From the IMG/VR virus record IMGVR_UViG_3300037601_000035: 20,000 nucleotides of DNA; one strand, 5' to 3'. Positions 2,276 through 20,000 of this stretch are shown here, one piece after another. Position 1 is the stretch's first letter. Each line of letters begins with the position of its first letter. The stretch is from an uncultured virus (IMG/VR IMGVR_UViG_3300037601_000035). Taxonomy: Duplodnaviria; Heunggongvirae; Uroviricota; Caudoviricetes. The notes beneath the pieces were generated by a model. The model saw only the letters and a program-made list of their open reading frames with translations, had not been told where the DNA came from and did no database searches. Position numbers and translations under genes: made by a program.

Positions 2276-3682
2276 ATGAGCGCAGATGTTGGAATAATTG
2301 TTGGAAGATTTCAGGTTCCTTATTTACATGAAGGACATAAAAATACTATTCAAACAGTATTAGATAATCATAAACAAATTGCAATATTTTTAGGGGTAGG
2401 ACATACGAGAGGACTTCCTAAAAATCCTTATGACTACAACACTAGAAGAAATATGATGCAATCTACTTTTCCAGAAGTAGGACTTTCTATTCATTCTATA
2501 GGAGATAAAAGAAGTGATAAAGAATGGTCTATTGAATTGGATAAAAGAATTTCAGAAATCTTTCCTGGAAGGTCAATAGTTCTTTATGGATCAAGAGATT
2601 CATTTATAAGTAGGTATCACGGAGTTCATGAAACTTTAGAACTTGAAACAGATGTATTTGTATCCGGAACAGAAATTAGAGAAGAACATAAAAATAGTTT
2701 ACTTGCTGAAGAAGCATTTAGAATTGGTATTAACTATTCAGTAAATGATAGATATTTTAATCCTATTCCAACTGTAGATATAGCAGTAATTAAAAGACAA
2801 GAAGAAAAAGTATTACTTGCTAGAAAGGACGGAGAAACTAAATATAGATTTATTGGAGGTTTCGTAGATACTACAGATGAAAGTTTAGAAAGAGCAGCAA
2901 TAAGAGAATTAAAGGAAGAAGCAGGAAATGATATTGAAGTAAGTCAAGATATAAAATATGTTACTTCTAGATTAGTAGATGATTGGAGATACAGTGGTGA
3001 AGCTGTAAAGCCTTTAACTACTTTATATGCTGTAGAATATATGTGGGGAACCCCGAGACCTAGTGATGATATAGTTGAATTGAAATGGTTTGATTTAAAT
3101 TCTTTAAGTTCTGATGATCTAATGGATGAACATTTTATTTTAGCAGAAAGACTAAAAGAAAAACTGCATGATATTGATCTTTATAAAATTAAACAATACG
3201 AACCTACTTTAGATTTTGAAGATGAAGATTTTACTCCAAAGAAAAGCATAGCAGAACGTTATGGCAAAAAGGAACCTACATGGAAAGAAAAATTAGATTT
3301 AAAAAATAATTCAAAAGAAATAGTAAAAGAAAATCTAAAAGATATTTTAAAAATAGCAGGAACTTATAAAAAAGCTGCTCAAATATCAGGACTTACTAGA
3401 GATCAAATACTATATAGAGCTAGAAAGTTAAAGGTAGGTGGTAAAAAAGGAAGACCTTCTTCAAAAAAGGATTCTACAAATGGAAGACTTTCAAACAGTC
3501 AACTTAATTGGAATATCAAACTGAGTACGAAGTTAAATAATCATTCTGAAATGGCTAGTAATTTAAGAGAGCTTTCTGACAAAGCAGATGGAAAAATTGC
3601 TAAAATGGCTAAAATATCAGGGATGAGCTATGGACAAATCAATTATAGACTAAATAAATATGTTTATAATAATTTTATTTAA
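2276..3682 (+). CDS. nadM: Bifunctional NMN adenylyltransferase / Nudix (ADP-ribose pyrophosphatase-like) hydrolase with a C-terminal extension carrying two Fis-like HTH motifs
   Basis: N-terminal GRFQVPYLHEGH (HxGH nucleotidyltransferase motif) and SGTEIR. Nudix box GGFVDTTDESLERAAIRELKEEAG. The basic tail has ILKIAGTYKKAAQISGLTRDQILYRARKL and LSDKADGKIAKMAKISGMSYGQINYRLNKY. Confidence 0.88.
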   Translation: MSADVGIIVGRFQVPYLHEGHKNTIQTVLDNHKQIAIFLGVGHTRGLPKNPYDYNTRRNMMQSTFPEVGLSIHSIGDKRSDKEWSIELDKRISEIFPGRSIVLYGSRDSFISRYHGVHETLELETDVFVSGTEIREEHKNSLLAEEAFRIGINYSVNDRYFNPIPTVDIAVIKRQEEKVLLARKDGETKYRFIGGFVDTTDESLERAAIRELKEEAGNDIEVSQDIKYVTSRLVDDWRYSGEAVKPLTTLYAVEYMWGTPRPSDDIVELKWFDLNSLSSDDLMDEHFILAERLKEKLHDIDLYKIKQYEPTLDFEDEDFTPKKSIAERYGKKEPTWKEKLDLKNNSKEIVKENLKDILKIAGTYKKAAQISGLTRDQILYRARKLKVGGKKGRPSSKKDSTNGRLSNSQLNWNIKLSTKLNNHSEMASNLRELSDKADGKIAKMAKISGMSYGQINYRLNKYVYNNFI

Positions 3683-3693
3683 AGGTACATATC

Positions 3694-3888
3694 ATGTCAC
3701 AAAAACATAATTTTAAAATAGGTGATATAGTGGTATTAAATTCAGGAGGACCTGATATGAAAATAATTGGAATACTTGAAGAAGATTTAGTATATCGCTC
3801 TATTGAATGTATGTGGAAAGATAATAGAGAAATTTCTAAATTTCACAATTTTCATCCAGCAACAATACATTTAAAAGAGGAGAAATAA
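3694..3888 (+). CDS. YodC/DUF2158-like small protein
   Basis: FKIGDIVVLNSGGPDMKI...ECMW...FHPATI matches the recalled family pattern FxxGDxVxLKSGGPxMTV...CxW. Confidence 0.75.
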   Translation: MSQKHNFKIGDIVVLNSGGPDMKIIGILEEDLVYRSIECMWKDNREISKFHNFHPATIHLKEEK

Positions 3889-3890
3889 AA

Positions 3891-4082
3891 ATGAAAAAAT
3901 ATTTAATTTTAATCGCTTTATTATTTTTAATAAGCTGTAATGATAATCAAAATTCTAAAGAAGATTCTACAAAAGAACCTCAACAAGAATTACAATTTGA
4001 TGAAAGAGATACTTTAGAAGCAACTAGTCCTGAAGGAGAACTTCCTGAAGGAGAATATGAACACAATGGGCCTATTGCCTAG
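3891..4082 (+). CDS. Small lipoprotein
   Basis: MKK, then hydrophobic YLILIALLF, then lipobox LISC, followed by an acidic low-complexity mature region. Strong RBS AGGAGAAATAAAAATG. Confidence 0.75.
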   Translation: MKKYLILIALLFLISCNDNQNSKEDSTKEPQQELQFDERDTLEATSPEGELPEGEYEHNGPIA

Positions 4083-4094
4083 GAGAAATAAAAA

Positions 4095-5588
4095 ATGAAG
4101 TTTGAATTATTATATGGATCGGACTCTTATAAAGTCGGTCATCACCAACAATACCCAGAAGACGTAACTAAAATATACTCTTATTTTGAAGCAAGAGGAT
4201 TTAAAGAACCTTTTATAACTGAACCGTCTGTAGTAGTATATGGATTGGACTATCTTTTAGAAAATCTAGAAGGAATTCAATTTACTAAAGAAGGTATTGA
4301 AGAAGCAAAAGAATTCTATAAGAATCATTTTGGTTATGAAGTATTTAATGAAGAAGGATTTAACTATCTTTTAGAAAAACATAACGGAACTTTACCTTTA
4401 AAAATTAAAGCAGTTCCGGAAGGATCTGTAGTTCCAATTGGAAATGTTTTAATGACAGTAGAAAACACCGACTCTGATATGCCAGGAGAAACAGCTAAAT
4501 GGTTAACTAATTACGTAGAAACTTATTTGACACATCTTTGGTATACTACTTCAGTAGCTACACTTTCAAGAGAAATTAAAGCACTAATTTCAGCTTTTGC
4601 TTTCTTAACTCTTTCTGCAGAAGAAATGGAAGCATATCTTCCTTTTGCATTACATGATTTTGGAATGAGAGGATCTGTTGGACACGAATCTGCATATCTT
4701 GCAGGAGCTGCTCATCTTATAAACTTCTTAGGAACTGATACAACATCAGCTATGAGATTTATAGAAAAATTTCATGGAAAGGAAGAGCAAATTCCTGGTT
4801 ATTCAGTAATGGCTTCGGAACATTCTGTAATGACAATTAATGGAAAAGAAGGAGAAAAAGATCAATTCAAAAAATTAATTGACCTTTGTCCTGAAGAGAA
4901 AATAGTTTCTATAGTATCAGATTCTTATAACATTTATAATGTTGTAGAAAATTGGGTTTGTGGAGAATTTAAAGATGAAATTCTTTCAGGAACTAAAAAG
5001 ATAGTTATTCGACCGGATTCAGGAGATCCTAAAAAAGTACTTACTAGAATACTAAATATCCTAGAAGACAATTTAGAAATATCTATAAATGAAAGAGGAT
5101 ATAAAGTCCTTCCACCTCAAATAGGTTTAATCTGGGGAGACGGTATTGGATTAGAAGATATTCGAAATATTTTATCTATGATGACTACTTCTAATTGGGC
5201 AACTTCAAATATAGTATTTGGTATGGGTGGAGGACTTCATCAAAAAGTAAATAGAGATTCTTTAAAGTTTGCTTTTAAAGCATGTTATGCAGAAAAAAGA
5301 GATGGAACAACAATTGATATTTACAAAGATCCTATTACTGATCAAGGAAAGTCTTCTAAGAAAGGAAAACTAAAACTTATAGAAGATTCTAAAACAGGAG
5401 ATTTAGTAACTGTTTCTTCTTCTACAGATCCTAAACTATATGCAATGTCCGAAGAACTAGGAGATGATCAACTAAAAATTGCTTTCTTAAATGGAAAAAT
5501 AGTTAGACAAAAATCTAAATTTTCTGAAATAAGAGAAAGAGCAAAGTTAACTCCACCTAAAACAACTATTATAGATATAACAAATTAA
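4095..5588 (+). CDS. nadV: Nicotinamide phosphoribosyltransferase (NAMPT)
   Basis: Motifs DSYKVGH, LHDFGMRG, GTDT, ASEHS, SIVSDSYN, IRPDSGDP, GDGI, FGMGGGLHQKVNRD and KDPITDQGKSSKKG. Confidence 0.93.
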   Translation: MKFELLYGSDSYKVGHHQQYPEDVTKIYSYFEARGFKEPFITEPSVVVYGLDYLLENLEGIQFTKEGIEEAKEFYKNHFGYEVFNEEGFNYLLEKHNGTLPLKIKAVPEGSVVPIGNVLMTVENTDSDMPGETAKWLTNYVETYLTHLWYTTSVATLSREIKALISAFAFLTLSAEEMEAYLPFALHDFGMRGSVGHESAYLAGAAHLINFLGTDTTSAMRFIEKFHGKEEQIPGYSVMASEHSVMTINGKEGEKDQFKKLIDLCPEEKIVSIVSDSYNIYNVVENWVCGEFKDEILSGTKKIVIRPDSGDPKKVLTRILNILEDNLEISINERGYKVLPPQIGLIWGDGIGLEDIRNILSMMTTSNWATSNIVFGMGGGLHQKVNRDSLKFAFKACYAEKRDGTTIDIYKDPITDQGKSSKKGKLKLIEDSKTGDLVTVSSSTDPKLYAMSEELGDDQLKIAFLNGKIVRQKSKFSEIRERAKLTPPKTTIIDITN

Positions 5589-17000: not shown

Positions 17001-17505
17001 CTGGACTATCGTGTGTAGGAATTTGAAGTCCTAATGAAGAATCAGGTTTATCTATATTTGTAAGTAATAAAGTATTATTTGTCTTAGCATTAATTAAAGT
17101 TTTTAAACTTGTTTCTGCTTCTCCATCTGCTGAAGTATAACTTATGTCTTCTAAATCAAATGTTAATCCTTGAGAAAAATTAAAAGTTCCTTGCTTTATC
17201 CACCCATCATTTTTAAGCTCATAAAAATCTCCGTTAGTAGATATTACAGCATAGTCTCCTACAATTGCTGCATTTGGAAGTAAAGCAGTATTTGCTATGT
17301 TCCACCATTTAGATCCTCTTTGACCCGTCGGACCTGTTAAACCTACAGGGCCTCTAGGACCTGGTAATCCAGCACCTCCAGGATTTCCTGATTTTCCTTC
17401 AGGTCCTCCATTAGAATTTGCTATTAATTGAAAATTTTCATTTAACTTATCTACCAATACTTGAGTAGATTCGGTTACTTTTATTTCGTTTAAATTTAAT
17501 GCCAT
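14059..17505 (-). CDS. Collagen-like tail/baseplate fibre protein
   Basis: 1148 aa, G/S/T/D/N-rich. It has 11 G-X-Y triplets near the N-terminus followed by RGSKW...GDY, two G(S/A)(I/V)R(F/Y)...F(Q/E)G(F/Y)xGTxW fibre repeats, a second G-X-Y run and beta-rich C1q/BclA-like segments. Confidence 0.75.
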   Translation of the reverse strand: MALNLNEIKVTESTQVLVDKLNENFQLIANSNGGPEGKSGNPGGAGLPGPRGPVGLTGPTGQRGSKWWNIANTALLPNAAIVGDYAVISTNGDFYELKNDGWIKQGTFNFSQGLTFDLEDISYTSADGEAETSLKTLINAKTNNTLLLTNIDKPDSSLGLQIPTHDSPGDSYPFIQGSDSLYKDLYDYKLKIYNSGNSEDDTTQMYGRHIHLGNSFAMTQKSGWLTNSGFTIGVDLHIDDINDTGEGREILSIEGRTSGNPEHLHRLQIENADFWVNTFRIGKNGTTSVGFADDYTPTQKLEINGGIRIGDTSIETDGSIRFKDGEFQGFDGTEWVDLSITAQEVVDLIKTNQASFNDKVIDTSGDGGVIFGDMSSVGTLKAGAVRYNSGTGDFEGYNGTSWVVLNNKVSLGSTGGPGEPGGPGGTGNFVDENGDPINSKIAVNTNDPLNAGNPIYEGLVLTSEDGSVTLNQSVLESKYSVVDLSSNGIFGAVDSEGNPISVKGFDINSDDIQVDKNISDGKINYQLKLSDSSKFKDAVNGAFDLRSSDGTVIANPPSDEKTYWDLKVSPGAGLQETQPAAARYTGDTATPDLEYSAAYGGHYSYLSFETKDFDANCNITSKDPLTIEVEKGQNGYYSVSARVRFTIDTYPGGTLASVKLCVFKDNEVISVLNSVTTGDSYDITHNNSKEYELQGTDLVDFACDTQDCSNSFKIGVVVDFGTSSGTGSLSMGDSSVAIHRITSVTQDSVDAYLLSSNTAFTEVTLHDVSNVETANLVSVVNDGHLKLALPQYITYEILDDTYLKIDANITALQAALDPNSTILTNSYSTIRVDTSFTHNSDNDSELEFISGDNVSLSLTDNQLTINSTAPKPTVQSDGANVASTYDNIDFSSEFSVTEAGGKVSVSMNTSNSGGKHNVIHLSTNYYGYLSTIQSGTNEDIQAGILNYNTFSNAAAAGIRYRSVGEEILDSDLGAISHGDLTGGIVLVPEETAKYSISTNVGIDFVMFNEAFSPVVNYTTNDLGHAGIGLFKLSGGGSYTIKTGLGTASASLVKMLGSASTPIDIMRTWNKNGSPDRVSLATCTRIGGTTILELTEDEKYVFGVVTGPARTYIDVYRRKSNELTVQSLGQMDDFKALLYDADISVEKIL

Positions 17506-17521
17506 TTTTATTTCTTATTTT

Positions 17522-17779
17522 TTAAATGTACTTAAAACTAATTTTAATATTAAATTTAAGTTTTCTTCCTTTTTCTAAAGGTCTTTTTAATTCAATAATT
17601 TCTTTGCTTGTATCTTCAACGTTAAAATTAGAGTCTATAATTAAGTCTAAATCACTTTCAGTGTACTCTGTTGATGTAGAATCTTTACTTAATATGTTAA
17701 TGCTATCAATTGAATAAAGCTTCTCTAAGTCATTGAAAATTAATCTTTTTAAACTATCTTCTATTTCCACATCATCTAA
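17522..17779 (-). pseudogene. Detached second copy (copy B) of the 3' end of the 19166-20000 gene
   Basis: 17522-17766 aligns to 19166-19413 as a 115-nt block with 4 mismatches, a 40 vs 43-nt variable block and a 90-nt block with 5 mismatches. The reading frame is intact to the same stop. There is no convincing own start (GTG 17770, no RBS). Confidence 0.85.
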
Positions 17780-17900
17780 GTTATACTGTATTTCTTATTT
17801 TAACTATAAGAAACTTCTTGGGCTGACCTTGTAACCTCAGTCATATCTCCACAAGCGTAACTTTCTGTCCAGCCGACAGTAGAATTTTTATATACAAGGT
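17760..17900 (-). ncRNA. Putative TnpB omegaRNA (reRNA) scaffold plus guide; boundaries approximate
   Basis: It overlaps the tnpB 3' end, as is typical. Hairpins are CTGTC-ggctg-GACAG (17865-17879), TGAC...GTCA (17824-17843) and TTTCTTAT-agttaaa-ATAAGAAA (17791-17813). The tail encodes the STVGWTESYACGD peptide typical of omegaRNA-overlapping tnpB ends. Confidence 0.6.
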
Positions 17901-19023
17901 TTATTCCTTGTTTTACTAGTTCACCAACGCCTTCTCGCTTTATATTACGAGCAGCATTAATGTCTCTATTAATTGTGTGTCCGCAATCACATGTATACGT
18001 TCTATCCTTTAAAGACAAATCTTCTTTAATAGTTCCGCATTCGTTACATAACTTGCTTGAAGGGAAAAATCTATCTATTTTTATAAAATGCTTGTTTTCT
18101 TTAAAACATTTCCATTCAAGAAAAGAAAGGAATTTTGACCAACTAAAATCAGAAGCAATTGTTTTAGAAATACCGGAATTAAATTTCTTTATTCCTTCAA
18201 CGTTTAAATCTTCAAATACAAAGACATCAAATTTAGAAACTAACATGTTAGCAAGGTTTCTTTGATATTCTTTCCTCTGATTCTTTATCTTTTCATGTAA
18301 TCTTGCAATCTTCAATTTTGCTTTGTTTCTGTTGTTTGAACCTTTCTTTTTCCTTGCTAGATTTCTTTGTTTCCTTTTTAGTTTATTTTGTACTTTTCTA
18401 TAGAATTTTTGGTTTTCAAATTCCATTTCTTCACTCACCATCATGTCTTTACAAGACATGTCGGCAGCAAAAATATTTGAGATGTTTATTTTATTTTTTG
18501 GCTGAGACGTAAAATCATATTCAACCAAAACTGAAGCAAAATACTTTCCAGTTGGAGTCCTAGATACCGTTACATATTTAATCTTTCCCTCAATGGTTCT
18601 AGGGTCCCTGAATTTAATGTAACCTAATTTAGGTAACTTTATCTTAGAACCTTTAGTATGAATTGCTCCTCTAATATTATTGGTTCTATAAATATTTTTT
18701 CCATGTTTAGATTTAAATTTTGGAAATCCTCTTTTATTTTTAAAGAAATTCTGGTATGCTCTATCCATATCTATAAGTGACTGCTGAAGAGCAACTGAAT
18801 CAACTTCCTTTAACCAAGAGTATTCTTCAATTTTCTTGATTTTAGTTAAATCATTTATTGAATCATACTTAGTGTACCTTTGTTTAGAATGTGCATAAAG
18901 TTCTTCTTTATAGGCTAAAGCATTATTGTAAACAAACCTCACGCAACCAAAAGTCTTATCAAGTAAAACTTTTTGTTCTTTGTTTGGATATATCCTTAAT
19001 TTATATGCTTTATTCTGCTTCAT
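17800..19023 (-). CDS. tnpB: IS200/IS605-family RNA-guided endonuclease TnpB
   Basis: N-terminal KAYKLRIYPNKEQ...FGCVRFVYN HTH, GFPKFK, IKLPKLG, RuvC-I AADMS, RuvC-II FEDLN, FPSSKLCNECG...CDCG zinc finger and RuvC-III RDINAARNI. Confidence 0.95.
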   Translation of the reverse strand: MKQNKAYKLRIYPNKEQKVLLDKTFGCVRFVYNNALAYKEELYAHSKQRYTKYDSINDLTKIKKIEEYSWLKEVDSVALQQSLIDMDRAYQNFFKNKRGFPKFKSKHGKNIYRTNNIRGAIHTKGSKIKLPKLGYIKFRDPRTIEGKIKYVTVSRTPTGKYFASVLVEYDFTSQPKNKINISNIFAADMSCKDMMVSEEMEFENQKFYRKVQNKLKRKQRNLARKKKGSNNRNKAKLKIARLHEKIKNQRKEYQRNLANMLVSKFDVFVFEDLNVEGIKKFNSGISKTIASDFSWSKFLSFLEWKCFKENKHFIKIDRFFPSSKLCNECGTIKEDLSLKDRTYTCDCGHTINRDINAARNIKREGVGELVKQGINLVYKNSTVGWTESYACGDMTEVTRSAQEVSYS

Positions 19024-19026
19024 ACT

Positions 19027-19053
19027 CTATATATATTTTGCAGAAATATATAG
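19027..19053. promoter_or_regulatory. Near-palindromic AT element (possible bidirectional promoter or left-end hairpin) immediately upstream of tnpB
   Basis: CTATATATATTTTGCAGAAATATATAG contains AAATATATA on both strands. It ends 3 nt before the tnpB ATG and 22 nt before a divergent ATG at 19076. Confidence 0.45.
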
Positions 19054-19165
19054 TTTATAAAAAACGATTAAAAAGATGACAAAATTACAAATTAAATTAG
19101 AACAACTTTTTGAAAATACCCTTGTTTCTGAAAACGGAGTATCTATTAATGAAAGTGTAAATTTA

Positions 19166-19413
19166 TTAAATATACTTAAAACTAATTTTAATATTAAATT
19201 TAAGTTTTCTTCCTTTTTCTAAAGGTCTTTTTAATTCAATAATTTCCTTACTTGTATCTTCAACGTTAAAATTAGAATCTCTTATCATATCATTTTCAAA
19301 AATATTAACATAAGTAGTTTCTATAGAATCTTTACTTAATATGTTAATACTATCGACTGAATAAAGATTCTCTAAGTCATTAAAAATTAATCTTTTTAAA
19401 CTATCTTCTATTT
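19166..19413. repeat. Direct repeat copy A (partner of 17522-17766)
   Basis: 196 of 205 nt are identical outside a central variable block. Confidence 0.95.
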
Positions 19414-20000
19414 TTGCTTCTATTGAAAGAGGATATATCCTTTCATAATAAGGAAGTATTAAAGAAAGTAATTCATCTCTTAACGCTTCTTTAACGTTTA
19501 CGTTTACTGTTAATTGTTCTTTAACTTGATTAAACGTTACGTGTTTACTTAGAATATTTAAATCAATTTCTGTAGAACTATTAATAAGTTGAGAATTAAA
19601 ATAGTTTCTATTTAATAATGGATCAAAGAATCCCGAAAGCTTTTGTTCATTTGTATTTGAATAATAAGAATACGAATCCTGATCTAAAACAGAAGAATAT
19701 AAAGTTTTTAAGTTATTTGCAAACTTCTGAGTTTTTTGATACATTGAAAATTCATTTTCTTTTACATTTTGTTTCAATTGATCGGAAGGTCCCATCTTTT
19801 TAATTAATTCTTCGTACTTAGCAAAATTTAAATGGTTCCATAAAAACTTAGTATTCAATTTATAAAAATCTATTTGAAATAATGTAGATAAATTATAATC
19901 TTCTCTTAAAGAAAAATAAGTTAATTTATCTGTCATTGGGTCGTATTCACCTTCTGCTCTAAGTAATGAAGTATTTACTTGTGCTTCTTCTAATTTAAAA
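19166..20000 (-). CDS. C-terminal part of a large gene, probably structural (5'-truncated by the window edge); ends in copy A of the duplicated segment
   Basis: The frame is open from the window edge (FKLEEAQVNTSLLRAEGEYDPMTDKL...), so ATG 19936 is internal. It is co-oriented upstream of the fibre and baseplate genes. Confidence 0.8.
   Translation of the reverse strand, partial: FKLEEAQVNTSLLRAEGEYDPMTDKLTYFSLREDYNLSTLFQIDFYKLNTKFLWNHLNFAKYEELIKKMGPSDQLKQNVKENEFSMYQKTQKFANNLKTLYSSVLDQDSYSYYSNTNEQKLSGFFDPLLNRNYFNSQLINSSTEIDLNILSKHVTFNQVKEQLTVNVNVKEALRDELLSLILPYYERIYPLSIEAKIEDSLKRLIFNDLENLYSVDSINILSKDSIETTYVNIFENDMIRDSNFNVEDTSKEIIELKRPLEKGRKLKFNIKISFKYI

Follow-up and report, generated by a model that had tools for sequence, protein, structure and literature searches.

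A transposase-less tnpB cassette between two ends of one phage gene, a candidate for RNA-guided homing

TnpB is the RNA-guided nuclease of IS200/IS605-type insertion sequences (ISs). Its omegaRNA is described as reading from the right end of the element into the flank, and as guiding TnpB to the same sequence when this lies beside a target-adjacent motif (TAM), which is found in front of the element, on the left (PMC8612924; 10.1101/2023.03.14.532601; PMC13565253). A known role of TnpB is to hold a transposon in place by cutting the site that the transposon has vacated. Here we describe a tnpB locus in a stretch of 20,000 nucleotides (nt), hereafter called the window, from the IMG/VR record of an uncultured virus (IMGVR_UViG_3300037601_000035). 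In this locus, tnpB is flanked by two versions of the end of one large phage gene. The locus is probably a derivative of an IS605-type element, without a transposase or a left end, that now serves as a cassette for RNA-guided homing and brings its own rescue, namely a gene end that resists its guide.

Spread of TnpB elements by means other than transposition has been considered before. TnpB is reported to promote the spread of an IS among plasmid copies without the transposase TnpA (PMC11870625). A 2026 review treats TnpB homing into co-infecting phages as theoretically possible (PMC13565253), and a preprint on cyanophage A-1(L) offers, as speculation only, a homing-like role for the tnpB of this phage (10.64898/2026.02.14.705889). 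Replacement gene ends are described for a different kind of mobile element, the mobile open reading frames (mORFs) of fungal mitochondria, which insert together with a foreign C-terminus in Allomyces atp6 and in Glomus atp6, atp9, cox2, and nad3 (PMC3630166). Going by the titles and abstract openings of the top-ranked papers, no TnpB cassette with a replacement gene end was found in print.

Two ends of one gene on either side of tnpB

The window is the reverse strand of positions 75,924–95,923 of the IMG/VR record (211,581 nt, 27% G+C, CheckV completeness 82%; G000 where the full record is meant), whose source is a jumbo phage from a pond. Comparisons with other contigs are given in the coordinates of the working locus L002, which comprises record positions 70,500–82,500 on the plus strand and corresponds to the minus strand of the window. 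In this orientation, a gene of 1917 codons with an A-type end is followed by a spacer, tnpB, an omegaRNA-like right end, an orphan B-type end, and the gene for a collagen-like fibre, whose ATG (17505) lies 16 nt after the stop codon of B. An initial annotation of the window, made from its letters alone, had claimed this order with a spacer of 142 nt, and all of the elements are present. The record contains one tnpB. The 1917-codon gene sits in a tail/baseplate module, with tnpB, the fibre gene, and a baseplate wedge subunit gene downstream, and it encodes a matrixin-like metalloprotease domain (Pfam Peptidase_M10, E 3.5e-9, residues 1217–1374).

The A and B ends align with 279 bits at the DNA level, compared with 21.8 bits for the best reversed-sequence control at the locus. 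A local alignment spans 248 nt of A and 245 nt of B, and the true starts of both copies lie 22–25 nt further upstream. A codon alignment guided by the empty-site joint described below gives 90 codons for A and 88 for B, including the stop codons, and places the true left edge of A at window position 19435/19432. The duplication first noticed is real, and its proposed length of ~82 codons and edge at 19430 are replaced by these values.

The two ends share their first codon, TAT, and differ in two patches, codons 2–8 at the joint and codons 38–52, with a one-codon length difference in each. Divergence of this kind had been noted before, as one variable patch instead of two. After the shared TAT, A and B have the same letter at 3 of the next 16 nt (manual count), and the strongest divergence between them falls on the seven codons right after the joint, which is the position of the predicted guide template and target. 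Outside the patches there are nine nucleotide differences (~205 nt) in eight codons. Six of these codon changes are synonymous and two are conservative (N/K and V/I), in agreement with the initial annotation. Under a crude equal-rates model of random single-base changes, 82% of which are non-synonymous, the synonymous excess has a P of ~0.002. This pattern suggests that selection has acted on both ends.

A relative without the element is found in X15, one of the sequencing runs (X1–X17) that were available as Logan contigs. It is an aquatic metagenome that belongs to another study and another year. Its contig of 16,124 nt (depth 45) matches L002 4502–5989 with 42 differences in 1488 nt and L002 7640–9500 with 57 differences in 1861 nt, which makes the flanks ~97% identical. 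It joins L002 5989 to 7640, so that exactly 1650 nt are absent and the reading frame is kept. A single gene continuing into a B-type end is what had been predicted for an element-free relative. The joint reads ACAG-TAT-AAC, in which the three letters TAT fit either side. The predicted guide starts 3–6 nt upstream of the sequence TTAGATGATGTGG at which it had been placed in the initial annotation.

The protein of the 16,124-nt contig, P0005 (1915 amino acids, aa), reads ...LILPYYERIY NLDDVEIEDSLKRL... (also read as ...YERIY NLDDVEIEDSLK...) and continues as a B-type end. By the joint of this contig and by comparison of P0005 with P0001 and P0004, which both carry the A-type end, the unit of presence or absence consists of the A-type end, the spacer, tnpB, and the right end. 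The orphan B differs from the end of P0005 at 3 of 87 residues. The A-type end differs from it at both patches and by two one-codon insertions. At patch 1, the homologs P0002 (60% identical, last 468 residues) and P0003 (39%) have IYNLND and IYNMDD, respectively, and both have the length of B at both patches. Since distant homologs are B-like at patch 1, A is the odd, derived or foreign allele. By these comparisons, PLSIEAK in the A-type end is the derived or foreign form of patch 1, and B, kept 16 nt before the fibre gene, is the native end. That the divergence of A is greatest precisely at the predicted target, where A is also the derived form, is an observation beyond the initial annotation.

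The same annotation had pointed out that element-free relatives with an A-type end directly before the fibre gene would speak against it. None was found in a shallow search of the protein collection, in which three full-length homolog clusters were available. A scan of viral contigs with the C-terminal 500 aa and the B peptide returned the sibling contig only. Metagenome contigs scanned with the 200 aa upstream of the joint gave 173 matching pattern stretches and no relative among them, and protein fragments of 109–349 aa searched with the last 199 aa gave none among 282 candidates.

A different origin for the two ends is that A arose in place, as a copy of the phage's own B that has since diverged under escape from self-cutting. 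The nine differences in ~205 nt outside the patches are similar to the ~3% divergence between strains, and A agrees with B against P0005 at two positions (S-x-DS and GRK), as expected for such a copy. However, escape leaves patch 2 unexplained, since this patch covers 15 codons, includes a one-codon indel, and is far from the target. Moreover, patch 2 of A is nearer to P0002 (SIExxY) than that of B is, and the sequence after the A stop codon is unrelated to that after the B stop codon. We consider an in-place duplication very improbable.

The arrangement is not the artefact of a single assembly. A second IMG/VR contig (L003) is 100% identical over 8148 nt that include A, tnpB, and B. The protein P0004, which comes from a third contig, has an A end identical to that of P0001 and three differences elsewhere, and appears to represent a second carrier background. 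The stretch or part of it was listed for 17 runs, 13 of which had at least half of its words, and the contigs of four runs were aligned to L002. Unique junctions were found in Logan contigs of three other pond runs. Record 12 of X5 matches L002 6223–7896 with 0 differences, and joins an A-specific base (L002 6253, six nt before the A stop codon) to the spacer, tnpB, the right end, and both B patches. Record 30 of X8 matches L002 7532–9304, again with 0 differences, and joins tnpB, B, and the fibre gene.

The interior of A (L002 6003–6169) is covered by no contig of X5, X7, or X8, which is uninformative either way. The interiors of A and B lie between two shared stretches and may be collapsed by the assembler as a bubble, which would explain the hole. 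In X5 (42.6 versus 16–20) and X8 (22.1 versus ~9), and not in X7, the depth of the cassette contig is roughly double that of the flank contigs. Several strains with one cassette could produce this ratio; contig depth is not copy number, and the ratio was not used as evidence. A hint of a branch was likewise set aside, namely that record 28 of X8 (depth 5.6) ends at L002 5989, where a branch is expected 3 nt later.

A segment of 122 nt (L002 5569–5690) occurs as two variants, with 0 and 6 differences, together in X5 and X8; in X5 their depths are 8.1 and 20.5. Several phage strains thus live together, which is the setting that a homing element needs. Coexistence of strains also lends some weight to the concern, raised in the initial annotation, that the duplication is an assembly chimera of an A-type and a B-type strain, as does the fact that the second IMG/VR contig stops 260 nt upstream of A. 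Nevertheless, the unique junctions lie on single contigs of independent runs, and the two IMG/VR contigs agree with each other and with the protein of the third contig. A chimera is hardly conceivable on this evidence.

The nuclease, its predicted guide, and the recurrence of the layout

The product of tnpB has the helix-turn-helix (HTH), OrfB_IS605/RuvC, and zinc-ribbon domains and the D-E-D triad of the IS200/IS605 family. It aligns over 370 residues to the ISDra2 TnpB structures 8bf8 and 8exa (E 7e-72), with D188, E271, D354, and the zinc-finger cysteines matched. The catalytic residues of ISDra2 TnpB we take to be D191, E278, and D361. In an alignment of five sequences, including four phage relatives that are ~53% identical, the three acidic residues and the four cysteines are invariant. 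A nuclease-dead TnpB of the TldR type was ruled out because the RuvC catalytic residues are present. The closest bacterial relative, from a metagenome-assembled genome (MAG) of Tangfeifania (Bacteroidota), is only 52% identical, and from the copies in bacterial hosts (four loci in all) a source IS, left end, or TAM could not be read. A nucleotide search of phage records gave three short matches, all inside tnpB. Records 13 and 14 of X5 contain tnpB fragments that are ~87% identical and have unlike continuations, which indicates that related elements are present in the same pond community.

Nucleotide-level conservation is seen across six elements whose TnpB proteins are ~50% identical (L002, L005, L006, L007, L009, and L091, the last a Bacteroidota MAG copy), in a block made up of the 3'-terminal ~110 nt of tnpB and the 17 nt after the stop codon. 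Compensatory changes are seen at 7 of 20 predicted pairs in the six elements, and at 8 of 22 when four sequences are used. The region has a single-sequence fold z of −3.15, and no Rfam family matches it. Behind the conserved block come a variable hairpin, 4–7 nt, and the joint. Position, conservation, and covariation are the grounds on which we label the region a putative omegaRNA.

By analogy with IS200/IS605 TnpB biology, the start of the B-type end would be the guide. The guide 20-mer has no other site within three mismatches in the 211.6-kb record, and the A site is not among the sites within five. As a lead to the TAM only, GATATA(T/C) precedes the joint in both L002 and the locus L006 described below (two sites, manual reading). 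The left-flank sequence at the candidate TAM position is ...GGATATAT.

Parts needed for transposition were searched for in the record. Y1 transposase (PF01797) and serine recombinase (PF00239) have no match in the 211,581 nt, with positive controls; the record is ~82% complete, and a host-encoded TnpA is possible. In the spacer, DNA folding gave no left-end hairpin like the right-end hairpin, and no transposase remnant was recognised. Left-end hairpins are clear in the relatives L005 and L009. Without a left end and without TnpA in the record, transposition and restorative homing after excision are impossible. An Rfam search of window positions 17300–19500 with E values up to 10 gave no intron, only three chance-level matches. 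The absence of a transposase and of an intron is therefore as had been stated in the initial annotation. A canonical IS200/IS605 insertion sequence was rejected on the left-end and transposase tests, and the locus is not filed as an insertion sequence. An IStron was also ruled out, as no group I intron ribozyme matched in the same interval.

The spacer contains a promoter-like motif. In a BLAST search of the sibling locus against the genome, the spacer matched only over a 35-nt stretch around this motif. The exact second copy of the motif lies in a divergent intergenic region (G000 C1 ~39,533–39,562; L010 1534–1563), ~25 nt before the GTG with which a giant collagen-like gene (GNQGWQG repeats) starts, and weaker similarity continues for ~25 nt beyond the motif, up to the start codon of the gene on the opposite strand. 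A contig of X15 has a match with four mismatches over L002 6361–6395 whose flanks are like those of the 39.5-kb locus, which suggests that the element-free relative also has the second copy. We infer that the motif is a phage promoter, operator, or other control element that was copied before tnpB and now drives it. A promoter/terminator scan found 7 sites versus 11.5 expected from shuffles, and nothing above the shuffles. An antisense open reading frame (ORF) of 48 codons (window 19076–19222, plus strand) runs from the spacer into the A-type end and is unlikely to be a gene. Its first part looks like the start of the gene that lies on the opposite strand next to the second copy of the motif; a comparison with this gene gave no clear similarity.

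To look for the same layout elsewhere, 85 tnpB loci on viral contigs were screened. The upstream 1.5 kb was compared with the downstream flank at the 79 loci that had enough sequence for DNA comparison, and protein comparisons covered 253 upstream open frames. Among the 79 loci, long gene-end duplications occur only at L002 (279 bits for DNA, 130 for protein) and at L021 (52.6 and 54.7 bits); the maxima of the reversed-sequence controls were 31.5 and 23.1 bits, respectively. At L021 (IMGVR_UViG_3300010273_000008, 2403–4351), a MazF/PemK-type toxin gene with its own or a replacement C-terminus stands before the ~55 C-terminal codons of a Y1 tnpA that has neither a start nor a left end, an intact tnpB, a right end (...GGTTCAC), and an orphan copy of the last 37 MazF codons that is 68% identical, in this order. 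When genome contigs were scanned with the MazF-like protein of L021, the best 80 of 592 matches were 47–56% identical, which is uninformative on close relatives.

A third example is much shorter. At L006 (IMGVR_UViG_3300032046_000868), whose TnpB is 53% identical to that of L002, tnpB begins on the base after the stop codon of a phage gene that adjoins a baseplate-spike-like gene. The last 24 nt of this phage gene (2466–2489) are repeated after the right end (3702–3725) with 19 of 24 matches and the stop codon in register, a score reached by none of ~2000 random 24-mers. The repeat is followed by a ribosome-binding site and the ATG of the next gene, and the tnpB frame runs into the stop codon of the orphan. 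As read from its sequence, L006 is an eight-codon version of the L002 layout. The initial annotation had allowed that its locus might prove to be the only tnpB locus of this layout. L021 and L006 share it, and by these alignments the layout is real and recurrent at independent loci and genes.

Other candidates were rejected. At L007/L008, tnpB lies 9 nt after a gene, but the supposed short orphan end matches at 14 of 24 positions (p 0.71). The flank repeats of L011 and L071 (35 and 19 nt) are palindrome-containing and short AT-rich stretches, not gene ends. In Prevotella phage Lak-B1 (L181; MK250020.1), an intergenic stretch of 46 nt, 93% identical between its copies, is present on both sides of one tnpB copy, at 2430–2475 just before tnpB and at 3775–3820 just before the next gene. 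This repeat may represent duplicated control sequence and not the end of a gene.

Table 1. Features of the locus, in window positions unless another sequence is named
Feature	Position	Strand	Basis
A-type end, 89 codons + stop, in frame with the gene	19166..19435	-	codon alignment; left edge from empty-site joint L002 5989/5992
Patch 1 of A-type end, codons 2–8, PLSIEAK versus NLDDVE in B	19412..19432	-	codon alignment and homolog comparison
Orphan B-type end, 87 codons + stop, open frame without upstream gene body	17522..17785	-	codon alignment
Predicted guide template, first 20–23 nt of B-type end (TAT AACTTAGATGATGTGGAAAT)	17763..17785	-	directly 3' of right end
omegaRNA-like scaffold and right end	17783..17913	-	core overlapping tnpB 3' end, terminal hairpin 17814–17790, terminus ACAG(TAT)
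tnpB, 407 aa, apparently intact	17800..19023	-	Pfam HTH_OrfB_IS605, OrfB_IS605, Cas12f1-like_TNB
Spacer, 142 nt, A stop codon to tnpB ATG	19024..19165	-	DNA fold; BLAST of sibling locus against genome
Promoter-like motif, 30 nt (TATAAACTATATATTTCTGCAAAATATATA), 6 nt upstream of tnpB ATG	19030..19059	-	exact second copy in record
1917-codon gene, 3' part	19166..20000	-	ORF lists; rest beyond window edge
1917-codon gene, whole	G000 C1 71005-76758		ORF lists
Collagen-like tail fibre gene, 1148 aa	14059..17505	-	weak PHROG tail-fibre matches; contiguous with B in X8 record 30 and X15 contig

Elsewhere in the window, the plus strand between 1185 and 5588 carries genes for an AAA ATPase (1185–2258), a NUDIX/cytidylyltransferase-like fusion (2276–3682), and a nicotinamide phosphoribosyltransferase (4095–5588; PHROG E 1e-144). 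These genes look like a set for the salvage of nicotinamide adenine dinucleotide (NAD). Some phages use NAD-salvage sets to restore NAD after host defence.

Proposed homing with rescue and its alternatives

If the locus is a homing cassette, then the omegaRNA would run into the first ~16–20 nt of the retained B end and would provide a guide against B-type alleles. When carrier and element-free phages infect the same cell, TnpB would cleave the element-free allele beside the TAM within ...GGATA(TAT). The break would be repaired from the carrier genome, with the upstream gene body as the left homology arm and the B end with the fibre gene as the right arm, and the 1650-nt unit would be copied in the process. 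The carrier itself would be spared because the junction of its right end with B is without the TAM context of the left flank, and because its expressed A end is mismatched to the guide. Since A would supply a complete C-terminus, the gene would stay functional. The layout looks like that of a natural gene drive.

Such a cassette could originate from an ordinary IS605 insertion into the gene. Two recombinations with a diverged allele, the one homologous and the other illegitimate, would then put a foreign gene end in place of the left end and tnpA. This rescue step would let through only alleles with mismatches to the guide, which by itself would explain the strong divergence of patch 1. The truncated tnpA of L021 points to this origin, an IS605 insertion followed by illegitimate rescue recombination, and so adds a plausible birth mechanism. 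A one-off rescue is probably how such cassettes are born and not an alternative to homing.

The testable structural predictions of the initial annotation, which had interpreted the locus as a homing cassette, agree with what was found, and the drive itself is what we infer from them. Several points weigh against it. Cleavage, the TAM, and biased inheritance are predictions from sequence logic, and no RNA run contains the locus. In the empty allele, the target is preceded by TAT, with which the right end closes as well, so protection of the junction between the right end and B must depend on TAM positions that lie further upstream. The carrier lineage (from pond samples) and the element-free lineage are each the only one found. 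The flanks of the X15 contig keep a divergence of ~3% to within ~75 nt of the joint, with differences at L002 5911 and 5914, and no co-conversion tract is visible beside the joint in this alignment. B could be intact simply because the event is recent, as B and P0005 differ at 3 of 87 residues and the gene body at 25 of 1828. Finally, 77 of the 79 viral-contig loci have no long gene-end duplication, nor does any of 10 tnpB loci sampled from GenBank phage records, which makes the layout a minority state of phage tnpB.

Some of these points would equally be explained if a one-off rescue had left the cassette as a passive passenger, which is inherited vertically and in whose spread TnpB has no role. 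A single carrier lineage and a joint without a co-conversion signature are what this explanation predicts. Likewise, the identity of G000 and L003 over 8148 nt fits recent common descent, and the truncated tnpA of L021 shows that such loci originate by illegitimate recombination. However, tnpB, its catalytic residues, and the omegaRNA core are intact, and the divergence of A is concentrated on the predicted target, where A is the derived form. The layout also recurs at independent loci and genes. The structure has everything that a homing cassette needs, so passivity requires that the nuclease be inactive. For these reasons, we regard a passive passenger as unlikely, although it is the alternative that we take most seriously.

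A further alternative accepts an active nuclease and denies that the cassette is copied. TnpB would then be a weapon that destroys co-infecting B-type rivals, and the A end would confer self-immunity. The anatomy expected of such a weapon is identical to that of a homing cassette, the promoter-like motif is shared with a virion-type gene, and a part in the competition among phages that infect the same cell is reported for phage homing endonucleases (PMC11620839; PMC13565253). Yet there is long homology on both sides of the cassette, so repair from the carrier would copy it automatically, and the two roles are not exclusive. A weapon that does not home is, in our judgment, quite improbable.

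Homing with rescue is the reading that we favour for this locus. It would make available, for RNA-guided homing without a transposase, a target and a resistant allele that are both defined, together with a compact unit of 1650 nt. More tentatively, phages might harbour a whole class of natural RNA-guided home-and-rescue drives, made of TnpB–omegaRNA units that no longer have a transposase or a left end and that bring a guide-resistant replacement for the part of the gene which they interrupt. As part of this same tentative proposal, the units would cut the native allele to pass from one co-infecting relative to another and, with each transfer, would swap a hypervariable stretch of a tail-module protein, and the retained native end would act at once as the guide template, the right homology arm, and the expression context of the next gene. 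If the present locus is a homing cassette, then such cassettes can move alleles of virion-module proteins between phages.

Comparison with known systems

The locus resembles IS200/IS605 elements of the ISDra2 type in its catalytic residues, in a putative omegaRNA that overlaps the 3' end of tnpB, and in its right-end hairpin. Here as there, the guide would be templated just outside the right end, and the nuclease would cut the element-free site. In contrast to the present record, ISDra2-type elements have a left end and TnpA. The cassette also differs from them in carrying coding sequence of its host gene, and its target would be the allele of a rival instead of a sister copy vacated by excision. 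IStrons, in which TnpB elements of the IS607 and IS605 families lie in group I introns, are similar in that a TnpB element occupies a gene without destroying it (PMC10690162). IStrons are described as keeping the gene by splicing, whereas here the gene would be kept by duplication of its end and no intron is detectable.

Free-standing homing endonucleases of T-even phages (SegF, SegG, and Mob), known for intronless homing and localized marker exclusion, likewise have a nuclease gene among conserved phage genes (PMC13565253). They are described as telling self from non-self by differences in a nearby conserved gene, and as spreading by break repair in mixed infections (PMC13565253). These endonuclease genes lie between genes. 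The cassette, in contrast, lies inside a gene and repairs it with an end of its own, and recognition would be by a guide RNA. If homing occurs at this locus, then it is a concrete natural case of TnpB homing between phages, with the carrier and the empty allele both in hand.

The fungal mitochondrial mORFs are close in anatomy. They are described as comprising a foreign in-frame C-terminus followed by an endonuclease gene, with the native C-terminus downstream, and as having a native copy that is closest to the element-free relative and an inserted copy that is more diverged (PMC3630166); the same relationship holds here. The endonucleases of mORFs, however, are protein-guided LAGLIDADG or GIY-YIG enzymes in an organelle, whereas tnpB, the only gene of the present cassette, encodes an RNA-guided nuclease in a phage. 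Unlike in mORFs, the specificity of TnpB would be written by the retained native end itself. If the homing interpretation is correct, there is an RNA-guided counterpart to the way in which organellar homing endonucleases use a foreign C-terminus.

The synthetic CRISPR drive HomeR follows an identical design logic, as it places an RNA-guided nuclease and a recoded, cleavage-resistant 3' part inside a gene (PMC7968924). HomeR is engineered, uses Cas9, and works in diploid animals at a gene that is needed; the present cassette is natural, has TnpB, and would act between co-infecting viral genomes. If the cassette homes as proposed, then evolution has independently reached the engineered home-and-rescue design.

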